The notes below the pieces were generated by a model. The model was not told where the DNA came from, searched no databases, and worked only from the letters and a program-made list of their open reading frames with translations. From IMG/VR virus record IMGVR_UViG_3300029904_000001, positions 128,001 through 176,910 of that record: DNA of 48,910 bases. One strand, 5' to 3'. Positions 1,264 through 38,469 of the stretch are shown piece by piece (the stretch's first letter is position 1; every line of letters starts with the position of its first letter). This stretch comes from a virus (lineage: Duplodnaviria; Heunggongvirae; Uroviricota; Caudoviricetes). A program made the translations under genes and the position numbers.

Positions 1264-4200
1264 TTAAATCTCTATTGTGTTCTCTGAAAACTCTTTAAAA
1301 TAAAAATTAGAGAAAAATCCACTATTTCCTCTTCCACCTCAACGATATACAATAATACGGAACGCTTTATTTAAATCACTTGTTTTACATCTAACATGTT
1401 TTATATTTTTAGTTCCATCGGATGATTTAATGGTTGTAAAATTCGTTGAATATCAACTATTGAATGCATTTTCATTCGTAAATAATTTAGTAGCATTTCT
1501 GAAAATCTCTGAGATTTCATACTCCATATTCGCTGATCCACTTGAATCTTCTGTTAAATCAACCGAAAGTGTATTAACACCGTAGTTATTATATAAATAA
1601 TTTTCTACTTCAGCAATTTTATTATTATCTTTAGAAGTAGCCATCCATTTTCACTCACTACTATCCATAGAATCTTCTCGCAATGTCTCAAAACTATTCT
1701 CATTTTCTTTTTGAGTTTCTTCTAAAAAAGTAATAATATTTTCAATATTGGAATTAAATTCATCTGAATTTGAAAGAATGACATACATTGTTGCTGAATA
1801 TGTACCTGGAAGTGTTTTATTTTTATTTAGATTGGAAATAGCAAAGATCGGTTCTTCTGTATCATTAACTTTTCAATTATAATCATCGCAACGTAAATAA
1901 GATAAATTAAAACTTGCACTATATCTTGCTGTAGATAAAGTATATATTGGTTCTAATAACTGTTCAAAACCACTCATTTGTGGAAAATGAATTCCATTAA
2001 GTGCTACTTTAGATAAGTATTTTACTAAACATAAAGCAAAAACAACGTTGTTAGAAACCCAACATAATACACTATTGTCCGAATTATCTTGTTTTATGAT
2101 AAAGCAATTTGATATTCCTTTATCTAAATCACCGTCATATGTATCTTCATGGGCAAATACACTAAGTTCTTGTATAAACTTAATATTATCAAAATCTTTA
2201 TAATTTTCATCATCGGTTGTATTAATATCTCCAATTCCTATACGATGTTGTATGTAATTGGCTTCCGTAAAATAATTATTTTCATATAAACTCGAATGAA
2301 TACCAAGACCGTAAGCAATCGCAACATCGTCACTAAAGAGATTTTTTTGTATAACAGATCCTCCTTCTGTTCCCATATGATATAGTAATGGGTCTTTCGC
2401 GCGTTCTCTTTTACCAGTAGCCATAATAGAATTATTCTTAATTACTGTTGTAACTTCGTCAACATTCGGGTCATTTCTTTTACCAAATACAACTTGTTCT
2501 TCACTACTTCATGCTCAACTATTTCACATGCGACTTCTTATGTTAATATCAAACATATAATGTCCAGCTATAGCGTCTAAGAATGGATAACTATATCCGG
2601 TTACTCTATATCCGTCTCATTTAGTTGCTGTGATTGGAATATTACCAAAATCTAATCTTTTTGACAGATTAATAGTTTGTGTACCATTATCTTCAATACT
2701 TAATATTTCTTCAGCACCATCATATAGCGTAATAGTCGATTGTAAAATCGAATTTCAAAGATTTCCTTTTAAACTATTTATTTGAGCGACTTTATTAGTA
2801 TAAGATTGATTACTCAATAGACTAGCATTAATTCGTAAATACAAATTCGTTGCTTCAATCATAACTGTACTAATTGTTCAATGCAATTCTATTGTCTTTT
2901 TACCAGTGTCAATAGTAATTGCTGCGTAGTCAGGATATTGAATAGCTAAAACCAATTTTAATAAATCTTCTTCAGTTAATGTCCAATCTTCTGCTTGTAA
3001 ATCTGATTTGTATTTATATATAAAAGGATTAGATTGTAAAGTTAATGTCTTTAATACATCATTTTTTGTAAGTGGAATGAATGATCCTCTATCTCCTCAA
3101 CGATATTCTAACCATCCTTCAACTGGATCTATTGATTGTGAATAATCAAATTGTAAATCTGTTAAATTTATATAATCTACATTTACTGTTTCTAAATATC
3201 GATTAACTCACATTGTTCCAGTAATAGATGTTAAATAATTATCTACACTTCCAAATCATGTATTAAATACTTCACTTGGAATTAAATCTAAGTCCTTAGA
3301 AATAATATCGTTTGTTCCATCGTTTAAAATAATTCTTAACTTATAAACTCCACCTTCTTTTTCAAAAGTAAGATTTTTACTAGTAGTTCCATTTCAAGCT
3401 GAATCTGGAACCATTATACCAGCTTGAACTGGAGTAATCGGATTAGCTCTAGTAAACGGATTAAAATTTAATTGCGTTCGTTCAAAATACCAATTTCGAT
3501 AATTTGTTAATTCAAGAACATTGGCTTGATTAAAGTTGATATTAATTGTATTTTGTCCAAATAAAACCAAATTAGGAATATTTCCTTTAGCTACTAATAC
3601 TTGAGTATCATTACTTACAATATTTTGTAGTCCAGCAGCATCTGTTGGTAATGGTTGCTTTTTCCCACTTCCATCTAAATATACAAACTCATCTAGATTT
3701 TGTGTTGGTTTTATTTCCCTTCAAGTAGATTGACTATAACCACCAGAAACAGTTGGCCTATTATGTTCTGTATCTCAACCTGAGCCTGATGTTGATACAT
3801 AATTCATTTTATTAACACGATAAATCTCGTATTTACCAATCATAGTTCCAGTATTAATAAATGGACCTAAAATATTAAACGAAACCGTACAACTATCATC
3901 ATCCACTGCTCATTTATAGATTGAATCACCAATTGTTATATCGTTACTATCTGGAAGATTATTTAAATCAAAAGATATAGTTGATGCAAATTGTGTATAT
4001 TCTAGTATTTTACCATCATATTTAATGATAGGAAACGCAGTTACTTCAACATATCCGGAAAAATTATTAGCTGCTTCGCCAGATTCATCTTCTATTGGTT
4101 TAGTAAACCACCAATAAAAACTTAAATTGTTAAAGGCTGTAATAATATCATCCTGATAATTATGTTTTTGACAATTAACGTCTATATATTTATATTTATT

Positions 4201-5301
4201 TGGAAATTTAGTATCAGGATTATAGTCCTCATTTCAATCTCCAGGAGTATAATCTGCTGCTACTTCTCCTTCTTCGTTAACTCCTTGAAAATCTCCATAT
4301 AAATTATTATTAATTTCTTCCTTTGTATTATTAATTCTAATTAAAAATCTAGTATATAAATGCTCATATTGATTGGCACCCTCATCATAATCTAATGTTT
4401 GTTGAAATAATTCATCAGAAATAATTGTTTGTGCTGATAAATCCAAAGATACAAACATTTGATCAGCAGGAGGCTTTGTAGGATCATTTGCTAATGTAGA
4501 AATAGTTGTTTCTTCTGATTGATTTTTAGATTGTTTTTCAAGAACAGAAGGAACAGTCATTGATCGTACATTTAAATTAAATTTATCTGGAACAAATAGA
4601 TCATATTGTGCTGCTAATCAACCTGGAGTTTCCCAAAATACCTTTTTAAAGCCTTGTTCGTTAATACCCTCTGTACTATATATTTCAGTATCGTCTAAAT
4701 CATATAGTTTGTTATCAGAATCAATAACATAAAAATTTAAATGTTGATAAATAAAATAATTATTATTTTTAAGATAATCTATATCAATATCATCTAATTT
4801 AAATTCATCTCCAGGATATAATTTATATGTATCTTCATTTGCTCCATCCATAAATATAAATAAAGGATGTTTTTGCTGATCAATAATATCATTATATCGA
4901 ATAAAAGATTTACCTTGTTCTTTACCGCCTACTGTTTCTCCAAAATAAAACGGGCATAAATCAGCATCAGAGGCATCGACTTTTTGTTGATCTTCTATTA
5001 CAAAGATACTTTGAGGAGCAGGATAAGAACCTATTTCTACTTCTTTAGATATAGGATTATATGAAACTATATATAATATATCAGCATAACCTTTAATTCC
5101 TACGGGAATAAAATTAGTTGGCAATTTACAGTTTTCAAGTTTATAATTACCCATATCATTTTGTAATATAAACTCATTACCATTATATGTCACAAGCGTT
5201 CCATTTAAACAATCCGTTAATACACTTTTTGGAGTATTAATTGGATTTAAATCTGTCATTAATCCGTCTGAAAAAACTGAATTTATTTCTTGTCTTGCCA
5301 T
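1264..5301 (-). CDS. Large tail protein (~1345 aa, code 4) with tail-stabilisation/muzzle-like N-terminus
   Basis: Track fragments 4618..5301, 4234..4560, 1873..2424 and 1453..1644 share one frame and end at TGA. The frame closes with TAA at 1264-1266. N-terminus is FSDGLMTDLNP...LQNDMGN. Not every intervening codon was checked. Confidence 0.72.
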
Positions 5302-10907: not shown

Positions 10908-13900
10908 CTAGAATAAGTAATTAGATACTTCTTCTGAAATTAGAATTACGGAACGATAAGGGTTGAAGACTCCAGTAGCTGCATAACCCCAGTTTATTCA
11001 TATTATGTTACAATAAATATTAAATCTACTGCTCTCAGTTGAGACTTATTGTTACCAATAAGATCAGACTATATCATAAACTTAATCTATAAATTTAAAT
11101 TTAAAACCATGTGTTTGATTTCTATTTCCTTTAAGAACGTCTCTACATTTAGGATGTTCTTTTGTACATGCAGCTAAAGATTCTCATATTTTTACTAAAT
11201 TTCCTTCTAAGTCGTATTGTGCTATTTTTCTTCCAACAGGTTTTTCTTGTTTAATATAAGTTTCATTAAAACCAAAACTTCATAATAAATTTTCAATTGG
11301 ATTTCCAGTTGAAATTGCTTTTTTAATATCAGAAAATTTAATTTTAGTTTCTTTAGCGGCTTGGGTAATAGATGGATACGTTCTTATGATCTGTTTAGTG
11401 TCTTTATTATAAGAAGAAACACATTTATCATTTTTAACTGCTAATTCTTCTCTTTTTTTAATTATATCCATAATATTACCATTACTAATAAAATAAAATC
11501 CTTTAATCGGAACCTTTCTTGACATTGCATCATCTACTGAAGCTTGTGATAAATTGAATTTTTCTCTAATGTCTTTAACACTTTCAAATATTTCAAGAAA
11601 ATTTCCATTTAAATCGTACTGATAAATTTCTGAATGACCGCTTTTTCTATAATCGGTTACATCTAATTTCTCTACATATTTCTTAGTTCAATATGAATTA
11701 AATGCGCTTCTTTGATCTGTTATAGCCATATTAAAACGGTTACTATTGCATTGATAATATTTTACTGCATCTCCAACAGAAAACCATTCTTTAATAAAGT
11801 TACCTTCTAAATCATATTGATATAATTTATCATAAACAACTCCAGAATGTTTTCCACCTAAAGAAGTATTATAATTATCATGTCTTTTTAAGAATTCAAT
11901 ATCAACGATACGAGCTTCTTCGTTATAAGCATCATCTTCGTTATCAAATATTTTTAGTGTTGATCTATAAAAGTTACTATATCCATATTTTTTAAGTGCA
12001 AATTGAAATGCAGTCTGTGGATTCTTTATAGATCATCCTATTTCGATACCGTTGCCGATGTAACCGTCGAAAACGTCCGGATTTTCTGTTTTATGGACAC
12101 CGATATATATTTTTCCGTTTATTTTATTAGTTGTACAATATAAAATTCATTTCATGTTATTATTTTTTATTTGTTAAGTTTCTCTCCATTTCCACAATAC
12201 TATTATTGTGTAATCCCATTCGGGATAGTCGTTGAACTTTACCTAACCTGTCCTCTTGAGAATCTAGTTAAGTCTTAGCTGCTGATTTTCCAAAATGTTT
12301 TGGATTTCCCAGCAATTAAAAGAGTTATCACACATTATCACTAATATGCGAGCCAATTAGTTTAGCTTTGATGCAGCAACAGGGCTAGAGACTTCACCAT
12401 GCTGTAATCCGGTAGCTCCGCCTACGCCTCTAATAAAGTTATGGATGAATTCACCGTTTTTGAACGTGAAGAATGCACAATTGTGCTCAATATATTTCTA
12501 TATTGTTTAGACTATATCATAAACTTAATCTTCTAAAAATTTAAAAGTACATTTTTTACAAGTTTTTCTTGTTCCATATAATACGTGTACACAACCACAA
12601 TAATCTTTTTTACAAGCAACAATAGAATCGTAGATAGCTATAAGTTCTCCTTCTTTATTATAAACTCCAACTTTTCTTTTAGCTTCAATTCCACTTTTTG
12701 GTTTGTGTGGTTCTAATTGATCTACTTTATCATAAGATCACAAATAACCATAAGCGGCTTGTCCTATTTTTATTGCGTGTCCAATATGAGATTCTTTTTT
12801 ACCTAAACTTCATGCTGCTTCCTGCATAGAATCAAATGAAGCAATGTAATTTCCTTTTAAATCATATTGATGTATAGGAACGGCTACTTGTGCAGGAGGT
12901 CTATTTCCTCCAATAGTTGCGTTATAAACATCTTTTCTTTTTAAAAATTCAAGAGTTACAATTTCTTTTTCTTTTTTAAGAGCTTCTTCCATAGTATTAA
13001 ATTCAAACAAAGTCACTCTTATAAAAGCATCTGGGCCGTATTTATTTACAGCTCTTTGTAAAGGAGTTTCAGATTTTTTGTACGATGAGGGTTTATTTCT
13101 ATAAATCCCACATCCTAAATATCCATCAAAACCTTTCTTTCTTACAGTATGTACTCCAATATAAAAATGTTTATTTTTCTTATTTACTGTAACGTATACA
13201 ATGTACTTTATACTTTGTTTTAAGTTTTCCTCCATTTCCATTATAATTTAATAGTTAATAATGTACTCTACTAGGCTCGAAGCCGTTCGATAGTCGTTGA
13301 ACCTTCGTAGGACTACCAATCCTGGCCTGTTACTCCCTACGCTTGGCTGCTGATCGGCATATCTAAATAGACTTAGCTTTCCAGCAATTAAAAGGATTTT
13401 TAAACATAGATCACTCTATGCTGCCGCTGCAATTTCTTCAACGGCTGGTTTCCCCGATGTAGCATCTGCCGTTAAATCGAGGAATATTCCGTATTTTCTA
13501 TTAGGATATTCAATATCGAATGATCTATCGATCTTAAATGTAACAGTATTACCTGCAAATTCATAAGAATGATAAGTAGCACCAATATTTACATATCCAT
13601 TAGCTGCCTTCGAGAATACAAATGTTCCTACTGTCTTCCAGTCACGAATCCAAGCACTCATGGTATCCTGGATCTCGTTCCAGCATAAAGTATTACAAAG
13701 GAACATATCATTTGTGTTAGCTATACATTTCTGTATAGATCAGACTATATCTTTAACCTTTAAGGTTATCTCCCATTTCCAAATTTTGTACACCTTTCGG
13801 TTAGTCGTTAAACTTTGTTATAATTATAACTTTAGCTGTTGATTATCCATAAAATTAATTTGGACTTCCCAACAATTAAGGAGATTAATTAATATAACTG

Positions 13901-16900
13901 TCGCCAGTTACCCACCCTATTTGTTTCTCATTTAAGGTGTTACCCGTAGGCTTCTCACTCTTCTGAATCATTACCTGAAGAGCGCGATTGAAGTATTTAG
14001 GATTAAGACGATTAAACACGAACTTGGTAGCAAAGCGTTCGATTTGAGCGATAATCAATTTTGTTACCGTAAAGTTGTTTATACTTTACTTCTTATACTT
14101 TTATTCGTATAAGTTCAGACTATATCTTCATCTAGTTAATATTAGATGACTCTTGTTCGTGGATTTATAATTATTCTCCAGGTTTCATAATTTTATATTC
14201 AAATTCTCTAAGAATATAAGGTCTTATTAAATCTGAAAATTTTCTACCTTCTCTTGTTCTAAATTGAAGATTATACACAATGGTACCATCTTTCTTTTTT
14301 CTTTTAATTGGATACATTATGATATTATATTTTTCTTTAAACATATCAATAATATTTTGCGTATCTTCTTCATTTGTCATTGTTGCTAAACCAAATTTAT
14401 GAGAAGCGATTCTTCCAGTTTTCTTATTTCTTTCTATTGCGTGTGTTCCATCATCCATTCATCAAATGGCTATAGCTTCAGGAGTTAAATATGATAAAAT
14501 ATGTTTAGAAAAATGTTTAATTTTATCTGTATACATTCATTTTCTTAATATTTTAAAATATTTATGTCCTTTTGATATTTTATAACAATCTGTATCTTTT
14601 CGATGATATAATTTTGGTTCTTTACAATTAAGAAGTTTTGCAATTAATCTTGCTTTTCATTCTACATAAAATTTTTGATTGTGCCCATGAGAAATCTCAA
14701 GAGCTACGCCTGAATTAGGATTTAAATGACCATCTCCTAATACAAGTCCAATTAAAAGTGATTTCTTAAGTTTATCCATATTAAATGCTATTTTTTAATT
14801 ATAAATCTAGTCGTTACACATGCCCGATTATTAATAATCTGCTAGCTCGGTATTCTCATCTCAGAGTTCACCGAATTAAAGAGTTGTTTCAGAGAGTATT
14901 TCTACTCTAAGCGGCACTTCTCATACCGTCTCCGCTTATAATGGGTCTACCAGAATCAGGTTCATAGATCTTTGGTCTTCCATTCTCGTCTACGTCCGTC
15001 TTACCTCATACTAGTTCGTTATTTCTTGCCATCATGAATGTATCCAGACAATCTTTCTCAGCTGAGTTCATCTTGTAAACTGGATCATCCTTCTGACCTT
15101 TACCAATCTGGATAAATACATCCTCCATTGGTTTATACTGTGCAGACATATCGACATCTGCACGATGGGTGCTCATATAAGTGCGGTGTTTCTCAGTGTT
15201 TGACTGATATTTGGTATAGCCTTCTTCCGAGTATCAACTTAGACTATTTAATTAACTTTCTTGGCTTTAAACCAAGTCTTTCTCGTCTTTTAGCTTTAGA
15301 AATAGCAAATTTTGCCTGATTTCTTTCGCGTCTTTCAATAAGTTTAATAGTTTTTTCATCTGGAATATTATAATAATCTGTTTTAAATATGGCTCACATA
15401 AATCCATTTTTATCTGGAGTTTTAAGCTTTATAGATTTAGTTATATTACTATACTTATTAGCTTTTTCAGCCTCTGTTTGAGTATTATAACTTTCTATAA
15501 ATTCTCCAGTTTTTCCATTATATTTAAAGACAGGACGATTTTGAATATATTGTTTTCTACAATGATCGTACTTTATTTCCCCATTTTTATTTGGAAGAAT
15601 ATAATTGTGCATTGCGTACATATAAGTATTAGTAATCTTATCTTTAAATGAATTTCCACTTAAATAAGATTCTATATAATCATATATAGATTCATCAGCA
15701 ACAATAATCAAATTATTTAAATATGTTCCATTTTCTACTCTAAATCATACAAATCCAGTAATATCTTCTCAAATAAAATTGTTATAAATATTTCTATCTT
15801 TTAATGATTCTTTATTTATAAACGTGTCAAAAATGTATTTTGCAGTATAAAAATCAGATTGAATAGAAATAATCGCTCTATCAAAATTATTTACTCCATC
15901 TGTTTTAACTGCTCATTGCAATGGAGTTTTAGAATATTGATAAGTATATGGATCATTTTTATATATTCCCGATCCTAAAAATTCTTTATCTATATTATTT
16001 GGATCTTCATACGAAATTCCAATATAATATTTACCACTTTTCTTATTGGTTGTCTTATAGACGAGTCATTTAAAGTTAGTTTCCATTTCTATATTATTTA
16101 AATATATACATCTTACGATTAGTCGTTGAACGTTATCGTATTTACGATCTTCGCTGCGAGTTGTTCAAGAGAATATCAAAGATTGAATTTTCTCGCAATT
16201 AAAAAACTTTTCTATTATATATTACTATATAAAGGCACGAATTTTCATGCATTTCAGGCATTAAGTTGGTTATAAAACGAGTAGCAGAACCTATAAATGC
16301 ACCACTTGTATCAAGAACTGAATCGTAGCTATTATCAAGAATCTTACCTACAACCAAGAAATCTTTATCAGAAATTCTCTGAGGACGATTCAATACTATA
16401 ATTTGCTGACGTGTTCTTTCAATAATAAATGTATCATACTTCTGATAGTAGTTCTCATTAAAATGGAAGATGATATCTGAGCCCATAGCTCCATCTCCCT
16501 CTGGAACTGCTGTCATATATACTCTCTTAATACGATTAATATTAAGATCCCATTCAATTAAGAATGAATCAACTCTCTGGAACTGATTCTTTTTGCCCTT
16601 CTCAAGAGTATAAGTGTTCATAAGAGCTTCAGTCAGGTGAGTTGCAGTATATTGATCATATAGAGTAGATACAATACCTAACCTCGCGGGATTGGCTAAG
16701 CTATATTGCTTAGACTATATCATCTCTCTCGAGTCTTGCGCTTCGGTTAAATCAACCTACCTCTTACGAGTAGTCGTTGAACTTTCCAATTTAATTTTGG
16801 ATTAGCTGCTGATTATTTTATATTAAATAAACCTTCCAGCAATTCACAAGATTTTCAATTAATATCCAACTTATTAATTGGGGCGCTTCTATTCACCCAA

Positions 16901-35597: not shown

Positions 35598-35909
35598 TTA
35601 TGTAATTATTACAGTATCGTAATCTAAGTCTCATTCACCATCTCTGCAAACAGCAGCTGGTAATTCTTGAACTGCAATAAAATAAGAAGCAATTTGCATC
35701 TTTCTAAAATGCAGTTCTTTATAAATGAACTTCTTAAACTGTTCTAGATCTCCATCATAAGTAAATCTCATTGGAGCTTGTTCTTGATTCATATGTAATA
35801 GAAGTGTCCAACCCACTTCATCTTCATAAAAAACTTTAAACTTTCCAATATATTCACCATCGATAGCTTGATTTATTATTTCTAGAATTTCTTGTTCTAA
35901 AAGTGTCAT
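35598..35909 (-). CDS. Hypothetical protein between terL and portal
   Basis: Track ORF extended through TGA to TAA 35598, next to the portal start. Confidence 0.7.
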
Positions 35910-38469
35910 TTTGGTATTAAATAATTATTATCTTTTTTATCTGGAATTTCTCCAAATCGTTTATGTCCATTTTTGTCAATATAATATCCGTAGTCTTTTC
36001 ATTCTTTGTTAACTTCCTGAACATTACGAATTGGAAGATCAGATAATGCTTCATCACCTATCTCAGCCATTCCTAAAGCCGCGATAATATCGAATTTACG
36101 CTTTTCTTCATAAGAATAATTTAATAATTGTTCAAGCATCTCATCAAACATGATTTCGTGCCAATAATCAGTCACAAACATGTTGATTAACTCCAATCCG
36201 TGCTTGATAACAGCTTCAGTAGCTGGCAAACCAATTAATCTTTTTACTTGAGTTTTTCTTACTCTATTAGATATTGCAAATTCTGGTCTAGCTAAAAATA
36301 GGTTGTCTTTTTTATATTGTTTAAAATAATTTTGTATGGTAATTTTTGTATACTCCAACATTGCTTTACAATTATACCATACGCAAAGTTTCATAGCTGT
36401 TTCATACGCATCACGTACATCTTTTGGACGATCTTTATACATAGCAACATATTTTGGACTGTCCATTCCGTGAACACGTTTTTTAATAACTATGCAGAAA
36501 TCAGAAACATCCGATTCAAGTGCAGAATCAGACGTACCCATATCAATTGAGTCAATTCCTGCTACATATAAATTATTATACGGATTTCCATCCATATCTA
36601 AAAGTGGAGGTTCTACTACTAATAATTTACTTGATAGCGACATTTGAGCTTTTACTCATTTTCGCTCTTCGCTTCCCCATAATAAAGCCGTTGGTTCAGG
36701 TTTAACATAATTCTCTTTAAATACTCTGATTTGAGTGAGTCGTTCAGAAATAACAATTGAGTCAAAGATATTATCACCTTGTCTTAATAATGCTTCATCT
36801 GGAGTAAAACAATGTTCTGCACAATAATCAAGTAAAGCTTGACCTTCCATCTTTTTACGTTGGTTTTCATATCATTCTTTAAATCTCACTGAATCTGTAA
36901 CTCCACGTTTATCTACAAATTCTGGATTTAAAGAGAATTCATGTGCTGGTATAAAGAATCCAGTATAGGCGATTCTACCATCACGTGTATATTTATTTTT
37001 ATAAGGTAATACATTAAATGATCGAGGATTGTTGAACATCTCGGATAAGCCCGCTAAATTTGGCCCCGAATCTCCTCCAGTTGTTCTAATGTTATCTTAA
37101 GAGCTTTTTATCTCTTAATTCTCATACTTCATTTAATATGAGACCAGCATATATCTTCAGCAAAGCTGTCGCGCACTCGTGGAAACATTATATTTATTCA
37201 GTTTCTATGCGTTACGGTGACATATCAGCCTTATCGTAATCTGATAGTTTACCTCGGTATTACCATCTCAGGCTTTTACCGATTTTGCGCGATTAGGTGG
37301 CACTGTAGTTCACCACCCGCGATTCTTATTCCGATCTTTTCACCTCCTATTTCGACTAAAGCATTACCTTGAATTCAAGCTTTAATAAGTTTTGGTTGAG
37401 AACCAGCTTCCTCGTATATTAATCGCTCAACACGATCACCACGAATCTTATTTGGGTCATCAGCGACGATTCCTTCTATCTCTGAGAGAGATCCATATTC
37501 AACTCCTTCCTTATTTAAAAGTGAGGCACGTTTTTGCTTTATATTATCTATCTTCTGACGAGAACGTTTCATACCTCCATCCGTGTGAAGGTTTAATCAG
37601 TTTAATTGAGTCCAACATTTATCTAGCAATGGATCTAAATGTCCGTCAGAATCAGCAGTAGCCACAGTTCTAAATTGTCGCGTTGTAATAAAAGGGCGTA
37701 CACATAAATCTGCAAGTATTTCTGAGAATCCGAGACCTCTAGCTTTTAACATGCAGACGTCACGACCCGTATATTCGCACATTTCAACGTAATGAAAGAA
37801 CTCATATTGTTTTGCAATAAAAAGAGGAAAGGCTTGTACACGTCCCTTTACTTTTTTGGATACTCCTGTATTTGCGATCTGCATATGATAGAAATTTAAA
37901 AAGAAATAATGGTCTCCAGTTATACGATATTTTCCAACTGTATAACCCTCAGAACATCTTCTTAATTGTTCCATCCAATAATCAGCATAAGGTTTACAAC
38001 CTTGAGGATATTCTGTATAATGACCTGTTTCTTCATAAATTCTAGCTGCTTCTCTAAAAGGTTCTGGATCAAAATCCAATCCTTCTGTCATAGTAATAGG
38101 ACGATAACCAGTTAATTCATAAGATAATTCTGGATCAAAATATTCAATTGTTTCATCAGCTTTAACATCTCACAATCCGTCTCTTTTATGATGTTTAAGT
38201 TCTCATGAATCTTGATAATATTCTGATTCTGGTCCCTCGTCCAATTTATATTTTTCAATTTTACGTTTTAAATCTTCTTCAAATAATTGTCTAATAAGAC
38301 TCTCTTCATAGTTCTCTGCATAACCTGGAAGTTTTTTAAGATCTTGTTTATTTTGTTTAGCTCTTTTTTGTTCGGCGGTTTGATTTCTTTCATCCATTCT
38401 TTTAAGAGCTTGACCATATCTTTTCATAAACTCCGGTGTATCTTGTAATCTTTCTCTCTTCTTTGCCAT
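35897..38469 (-). CDS. terL: Terminase large subunit, 2 exons, 780 aa (code 4)
   Basis: ITGDHYFFLN, Walker A-like LKARGLGFS, Walker B LIYEEAG, GG|TGGD across the intron, RNase H-like YVAGIDSID and KFDIIAA, C-terminal WKDYGYYID. Confidence 0.92.
37082..37311 (-). mobile_element. Group I intron in terL (230 nt, no ORF), variant P7 and apparent terminal A
   Basis: P1 GGTGGT/GCCACC, P10 CAGT/ACTG, P7 GCATA/TATGC. Removal restores IAGGTGGDSG. Confidence 0.85.

Follow-up and report, generated by a model that had tools for sequence, protein, structure and literature searches.

The stretch of DNA analysed here (the window, 48,910 nucleotides) is the final 48.9 kb of the complete 176,910-bp virus record IMGVR_UViG_3300029904_000001, which has direct terminal repeats and a single copy of terL, the gene for the terminase large subunit. 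This gene lies on the minus strand and is interrupted; RNA bases are given here by window position, so that numbers fall from 5′ to 3′, and a slash marks a splice junction. Exon 1 (37312–38469, part of an open reading frame (ORF) at 37276–38469 in genetic code 4) encodes the ATPase part of TerL, including a Walker B-like RLIYEEAG, and ends with IGIRIAGG, its last codons being AUC GCG GGU GGU. Exon 2 (35897–37081) opens with TGGDSGPNLAGLSEMF and has ACU GGA GGA GAU UCG as its first codons. Between them, also on the minus strand, lies a 230-nt group I intron (37082–37311; 37% G+C) with a P7.1 element but neither a P2 nor an ORF, which splits terL at IAGG/TGGDSG and which ends with A37082 (a plus-strand T). 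A terminal guanosine (omega-G) is near-universal in group I introns. We consider it highly probable from the sequence that this intron, located at G/TGGD in the sole terL gene of a Zeta-type crAss-like gut phage, has lost its homing-endonuclease ORF, is functional and splices at a terminal adenosine. Its terminal A is genuine, and a few exceptions of this rare kind have been published before.

The TerL protein matches crAss-type terminases, both by the PHROG 6681 profile and by tblastn to Crassvirales; a Pfam search of TerL gave zero matches, and the exon 2 protein falls in a 127-member cluster. Many genes of the genome read through TGA, and one terL TGA is aligned with a Trp of crAssphage cr1_1, which indicates a code with TGA as Trp. 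ARAGORN detected eight transfer RNA (tRNA) genes in the whole 176,910-bp genome and found there no suppressor tRNA with a UCA anticodon, despite TGA=Trp genes on both strands; TGA may be decoded because the host uses code 4, or by a tRNA that was missed. In its genome size of ~177 kb, its TGA recoding and its abundance of introns, the phage resembles an intron-rich family of crAss-like phages of 145–192 kb, apparently the Zeta group (PMC7886860).

The splice junction of terL

Joined at the proposed junction, the exons give a full-length match to the terminase large subunit profile PHROG 6681. Exon 1 covers profile positions 76–331 (E = 8e-27) and exon 2 positions 332–726 (E = 2e-35), and the profile runs unbroken from 331 to 332 across the junction. 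Likewise, in tblastn searches against intronless homologs the exon 1 alignment stops at residue 260 and the exon 2 alignment begins at residue 1, directly following it. The intronless TerL proteins of MT835470 (~50% identity) and crAssphage cr1_1 (~30%) are contiguous at this point (...VWG/TGGDQG and ...MFG/TGGDEG), and the motif is TGG followed by Asp or Glu in all five TerL homologs examined, down to ~30% identity.

All in-frame pairs of 5′ and 3′ cuts within ~40 nt were enumerated by script. IAGGTGGDSG was restored only by the combination of U37312 and A37082, and every pair with a 5′ U and a 3′ G adds or removes residues in the conserved motif. As far as can be shown from sequence, the 5′ splice site lies after U37312, which forms a U·G wobble in P1, and the 3′ splice site after A37082; the spliced terL junction expected under this model reads ...GCGGGUGGU/ACUGGAGGAGAU. 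P1, P10 and a 2-bp P9.0 all select the same junction. A preliminary description of this DNA had likewise let P1 (GGTGGT with GCCACC) and P10 (CAGT with ACTG) fix both junctions, with GGTGGDSG restored, had recognized the group I intron and had read its terminal base as A, and all of this was borne out. It had further held that no nearby G allows an in-frame join, which is too strict: the frame can be kept by joining at G37086, G37078 or G37077, though only with a 5′ site other than U or at the cost of the conserved motif.

Several other readings of the junction were considered. There is no sliding ambiguity in the window, and the related contig L126 has an ambiguity of 1 nt with A at both positions. 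Editing of A to I was rejected because a UACG-type context is absent, and a split TerL because the conserved TGGDSG codons come without a start codon. G37086, the only G in the tail, was rejected as omega-G since it misfits the P9.0 partner and is out of frame with U37312; moreover, it is U in a group of related contigs (the L127 group, below) and so cannot be the terminal G.

Structure of the intron and its family

In the predicted fold, the P1 hairpin (37296–37317) pairs exon GGUGGU (37317–37312) with guide GCCACC (37301–37296) around the loop GAACUACAGU and places the U37312·G37301 wobble at the cleavage site. The P10 guide CAGU (37302–37305) forms four Watson–Crick pairs with ACUG (37081–37078) and is stacked on P1. 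Within the core, the P3 5′ strand UCGCGC (37287–37292) pairs with GCGCGA (37174–37169); it is 100% paired in the family, with three covarying pairs. P4 (UCGGUA with UACCGA) around P5 (GCC with GGU) at 37254–37282 and the P8 hairpin at 37158–37168 follow from the family alignment. The P7 5′ strand (37206–37212) consists of A37212, bulged C37211 and GCAUA (37210–37206), and its 3′ strand (37146–37151) of UAUGC (37151–37147) and U37146; G37210–C37147 is the guanosine-binding pair and A37212–U37146 the closing pair. In the P7.1 hairpin (37182–37205), GAAAC-UGAAUAAAUAUAAU-GUUUC, five of five pairs covary and the loop is a family signature. Two bases of the J7/9 linker UGGU (37143–37146), G37144 and U37143, form P9.0 with C37083 and A37084. 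P9 (37142–37121) and P9.1 (37118–37097, loop GAUAAAAAGC) fill 37097–37142 and are followed by the 3′ tail GAUAAC-AUUAGA-AC-A (37082–37096), in which the P9.0 partner AC (37084–37083) stands directly ahead of A37082, and A37082 at the omega-G position of the relatives. Of the 47 modelled pairs, 46 are formed in the window; the exception is a U–U at the inner end of P8. The assignment to group I is supported by the P1 wobble, by a P3–P8 core that includes the P3/P7 pseudoknot with covariation, and by the G–C pocket.

A pattern built on the P7.1 loop retrieved more than 110 loci from IMG/VR. BLAST matches to family introns exceed chance (E = 1e-25 to 1e-34); the core of the window intron is 74–77% identical to relatives over ~205 nt (E = 1e-27 to 1e-34), and 35 sequences were aligned with P3, P4, P5, P6, P7, P7.1, P8, P9 and P9.1 written out (47 pairs). 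Across the 35 rows, 93.9% of cells are paired, compared with 33–44% when the 3′ partners are slid; both-sided changes occur in 29 of 47 pairs, P3, P6, P7 and P7.1 are each 100% paired, and on four of five measures all 500 shuffles fell short of what was observed. The third pair of P7 covaries (G–C in 20 rows, A–U in 15), as does the pair flanking the guanosine pocket (A–U, G–C or C–G), whereas the pocket G–C itself is invariant (35/35).

The family markers are a P7 of the type GCRUA with UAYGC, the P7.1 loop UGAAUAAAUAUAAU, the P9.1 loop GAUAAAAAGC, a 4-nt J7/9 and a 3′ tail of GRUAAC, an A-rich stretch, P9.0 and the omega base. This P7 is common to the window intron and 67 distinct relatives in the set analysed. 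P9.0 follows a family rule by which the two bases ahead of the terminal base pair with linker bases 3 and 4, and it covaries (AA with UU, AG with CU, AC with GU, GA with UC, AU with AU). The rule holds in 41 of the 67 distinct members, a count in which the terminal base is crudely defined, against 26.9 ± 1.8 (maximum 33) in 5000 linker shuffles, and the pairing puts a terminal G in at least 41 of the 67. In the window the AC with GU pairing is formed, the base that follows is A instead of G, and the tail is 1–3 bases longer than usual. Several relatives with exactly the window's pocket (UAAC-GCAUA ... UAUGC-U) end in G, and the P7 variant is therefore unrelated to the terminal A. Accordingly, the GCATA with TATGC helix stressed in the preliminary description does retain the G–C guanosine pair but is a family hallmark, not a peculiarity of this intron; a survey of terminal bases in introns of this type, which had been suggested there, yields G in most and no explanation for the A.

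Two further members of the family stand out. The terL gene of Staphylococcus phage VB-SauS-SA2 (MH356730) is interrupted by an intron of the same family with 72% core identity, so the family spans phages of very different hosts. In L038 (~3220–3420, on the minus strand of that locus), the P9.0 partner UU of a family intron is followed by A (...AAAUU-A-CUGAUUG...); here, too, the terminal base may be something other than G, unless splicing uses a G located three bases further on.

Relatives in terL itself end in G. L044, a 175.7-kb genome, has a family intron at the same insertion site that ends ...AUAAUUG/ACAGGAGG, and L059 has the same 3′ junction and also ends in G, its sharing of the site being judged from the 3′ side alone. 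Family introns in L004, L002, L010, L123 and others lie 6 nt downstream (GGTG/GD) and end in ...CUG/ or ...UUG/; in most introns at that site, the P1 loop holds a LAGLIDADG ORF. These G-ending introns of crAss-like terL genes share with the window intron the core (74–77%), the P7 type, the P7.1 loop, P9 and P9.1, the GRUAAC tail and the host-gene motif. They differ in having a shorter tail and J7/9 linkers that are mostly NGAA or NGAG compared with UGGU in the window; a P2 is present in most of them and a P1-loop ORF in many, and both are absent from the window lineage.

The terL motif is a homing hot spot. In close relatives, family introns occupy at least three terL sites (L004, 1257–1477 and 1897–2995; L126, 1–1422; L137, ~4093–4312), namely G/TGGD, GGTG/GD with a LAGLIDADG ORF, and one before ...YGSLSEIEG, and the terL of one relative also holds an intein (Hom_end_hint). 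The end of the window intron with the adjoining exon (37077–37096, ...GAACA/ACUG-GA-GGAGAU) resembles the ends of the introns 6 nt downstream (...AACAAACUG/GGAGAY in L123, L136 and L138). Speculatively, both splice sites may have shifted, so that bases which once ended an intron now make up the Thr and Gly codons ACU GGA; the old terminal G would then be the first base of a Gly codon.

Recurrence of the terminal adenosine and selection on the intron

Besides the window, six contigs obtained through the exon 2 protein cluster have the terminal A, and together with the window they represent three sequence variants. A 174-kb ENA contig (L145) is identical to the window, with 0 mismatches over 3540 nt. 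Four contigs of differently named assemblies (L127–L130, the L127 group) are 97.6–97.8% identical over the intron and 96.6% with flanks, and the Logan contig L126 is 92% identical with flanks. The phage is present in the assemblies ERZ27239272, ERZ24773406, ERZ24773415, ERZ28613992, ERR4096482 and SRR14620901. The contigs L126–L130 carry this intron, likewise without an ORF, at an unchanged position, all ending ...AACA/ACUGG, and P10 is kept in all three variants. Metagenome contigs queried with exon 2 gave no match, and exact-pattern scans of viral contigs found neither the 5′ nor the 3′ junction. The sole argument that base 37082 is really a G, misread or misassembled, is that a terminal G is expected a priori in a group I intron; because independent assemblies, two diverged variants among them, all have A, we regard such an error as extremely unlikely. 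To judge from sequence, A has occupied the omega position long enough to be shared by three variants.

The same contigs bear on whether the intron uses a canonical 5′ U and 3′ G elsewhere, with a TerL that tolerates an altered motif. Such in-frame pairs exist; for example, U37307 with G37077 would yield IAGG-EL-GDSG, and U37302 with G37078 would yield IAGG-ELQW-GDSG; moreover, the P1 loops of the window and L126 differ by 3 nt, so that the frame is kept in both. These pairs were nevertheless rejected, as their products are non-conserved and neither U37307 nor U37302 forms a U·G pair with the guide. G37078 fits P9.0 only with a shortened linker and a G·U wobble. L126 has AUGAUGUAC in place of GAACUA in the P1 loop, while CAGU and the GCCACC guide are the same and the intron downstream is identical; there is no covariation of the guide, and the alternative 5′ sites inside the loop are thereby removed. 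Near-identical phages would also have to make ELQW in one case and MMYQC in the other inside a conserved motif. Splicing at such sites thus appears very unlikely.

When the window is compared with the L127 group, the final 300 nt of exon 1 show 20 synonymous and 0 non-synonymous differences, and the initial 900 nt of exon 2 show 28 synonymous and 6 non-synonymous ones. Within the intron, a C–G pair of P7.1 has changed to U–A by a compensatory double change. The purifying pattern in the exons together with this change indicates selection on gene and ribozyme, both of which would therefore be maintained in lineages that all end in A.

This pattern also speaks to a splicing-defective intron, with TerL non-functional, produced by ribosomal bypass or as two polypeptides, or complemented by a co-infecting phage. 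From work on Tetrahymena, a terminal A would be expected to cripple exon ligation, and that is what favours a defect. Against it stand purifying selection on both exons up to the junction in diverged lineages, the compensatory change inside the intron, the presence of the same A-ending intron in three variants and at least seven contigs, and a complete genome with terminal repeats and one copy of terL. Exon 2 on its own lacks a usable start ahead of the TGGDSGPNLAGLSE codons, and an in-frame TAA lies six codons upstream of them. We know of no precedent for ribosomal bypass of 230 nt, and the bypass raised in the preliminary description is unnecessary and unsupported, given that P1, P10 and P9.0 specify an exact RNA junction. 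A defective intron is, in our judgement, highly improbable.

Proposed exon ligation without omega-G and comparison with known systems

We propose that the first step of splicing would proceed as usual, with exogenous guanosine held in the unaltered G37210–C37147 pocket for the attack. In the second step, the terminal A would dock weakly in the guanosine pocket, and the scissile phosphate would be placed mainly by the 2-bp P9.0 (AC with GU) and the strong P10 of four Watson–Crick pairs on P1. Ligation would probably be slower than with G, though still accurate. A possible side benefit, of the kind proposed for the hexacoral intron ND5-717 (below), is that less terL messenger RNA (mRNA) may be wasted through 3′ splice-site hydrolysis and circularisation. 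Compared by eye with a few relatives, the window lineage has an all-Watson–Crick 4-bp P10, a G–C-containing P9.0 and a slightly longer tail.

Some observations weigh against splicing at the terminal A. The guanosine-binding pocket is the same as in G-ending relatives, with no compensating change. From mutants of Tetrahymena G414, a terminal A is reportedly expected to be a poor substrate for the second step. That P10 and P9.0 compensate for the terminal A is our proposal, and the strength of P10 was judged by eye and from few relatives. Splicing at A/A is inferred from the sequence. Finally, the intron scores only 19.6 bits with Rfam RF00028 (threshold 50; E = 0.012 in a 601-nt search); the general model fits the P7 and 5′ region of the family poorly.

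Splicing at A37082 might alternatively need a phage or host protein for the second step, such as a maturase of the LAGLIDADG type, an RNA chaperone or a helicase. The unchanged pocket would agree with such a helper, which would also cover intron 1 of the major capsid protein (MCP) gene of the same genome, an intron that likewise cannot satisfy both canonical splice rules. LAGLIDADG ORFs were seen in this analysis only in the terL introns of relatives. No candidate factor emerged, however, and the strong P10 and P9.0 offer an account by RNA alone, and the title of a report on two Coxiella introns, one of them without omega-G, calls both self-splicing. Dependence on a helper therefore seems unlikely to us.

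MCP intron 1 (16696–16895, minus strand) has a P1 of GGGU with GCCC and a canonical 5′ site after U16895. Intronless homologs (P0137 and P0139) give FLG/ANPARLG, so the MCP mRNA must read GGU/GCC. Canonical U16895 together with canonical G16696 would lose one base. As G16894 is the same base as G16696, an identical mRNA would arise from U16895 and terminal A16697 or from G16894 and terminal G16696; to judge from sequence, one of the two splice rules is broken, and it could be either. The claim that two of eight introns in essential genes of this phage depart from the terminal-G rule is thus upheld in so far as MCP intron 1 needs a non-canonical site, whereas a terminal A there is not proven. 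A relative, L142, has a canonical intron at the site of MCP intron 1. RF00028 matches in the capsid region of the window (12182–14934) lie at 13721–13949 (78 bits), 13187–13451 (47 bits), 12182–12324 (38 bits) and 14709–14934 (25 bits). Of these four, only the first scores above the gathering threshold, and most of the phage's introns would therefore escape standard annotation.

A bolder idea, about which we are doubtful, is that the terminal base is dispensable in this lineage, with choice and docking of the 3′ site left to P9.0 together with P10, or else to a helper peculiar to the lineage. Two essential late genes, terL and the MCP gene (intron 1, whose junction is off by one base), would then be spliced at non-canonical sites despite an ordinary G–C pocket. 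If true, the terL intron and the G-ending relatives at the same site would form a natural matched pair for exon ligation without omega-G.

Irrespective of this idea, splicing of terL at the terminal A matters because omega-G is taken to be universal, and software that relies on a terminal G could misplace the junction and frameshift terL; the group I intron database describes the end position of an intron as most frequently a terminal G. For a metagenomic phage the sequence evidence is unusually tight, drawing on homologous proteins, three pairings in the RNA, recurrence in independent assemblies and purifying selection, and natural controls are available in the G-ending relatives at the same site. 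In practice, the junction is a guide to the annotation of terL in intron-rich crAss-like phages with TGA=Trp. Mechanistically, a compact ribozyme of 230 nt would allow the share of P9.0 and P10 in second-step docking to be probed.

In the literature searched, we found no published phage intron ending in A, and a paper on trans-excision splicing contained nothing on omega-A. In the Tetrahymena ribozyme, exchange of the pair G264–C311 for A–U is said to make a non-G nucleoside usable at the pocket and at the 3′ end. As the corresponding G–C pair of the terL intron is intact, this specificity switch is inapplicable as an explanation. A closer parallel is Cbu.L1917 in the 23S ribosomal RNA (rRNA) gene of Coxiella burnetii, whose terminal base is reportedly A. 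Like the terL intron, it is a group I intron without a canonical omega-G, and it is described in the title of its report as self-splicing (Raghavan et al. 2007, J Bacteriol 189:6572). It differs in residing in a bacterial rRNA gene and in belonging to another subgroup, the two Coxiella introns being IB2 and IA3. The terL intron, in contrast, interrupts a protein-coding gene of a phage, where an error of one base breaks the frame. An essential protein gene is likewise interrupted by the hexacoral mitochondrial intron ND5-717, which ends in A and yields ligated ND5 mRNA; the authors propose that the terminal A limits 3′ splice-site hydrolysis and circularisation (PMC8146996). ND5-717, however, is a giant organellar intron with ND1 and ND3 in P8, of another subgroup and in an obligate, not a mobile, setting, whereas the terL intron is a compact phage intron of 230 nt whose closest relatives end in G. 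Given the Coxiella and hexacoral precedents, the terminal A of the terL intron is a moderate surprise, a rare known kind of exception in a new setting.

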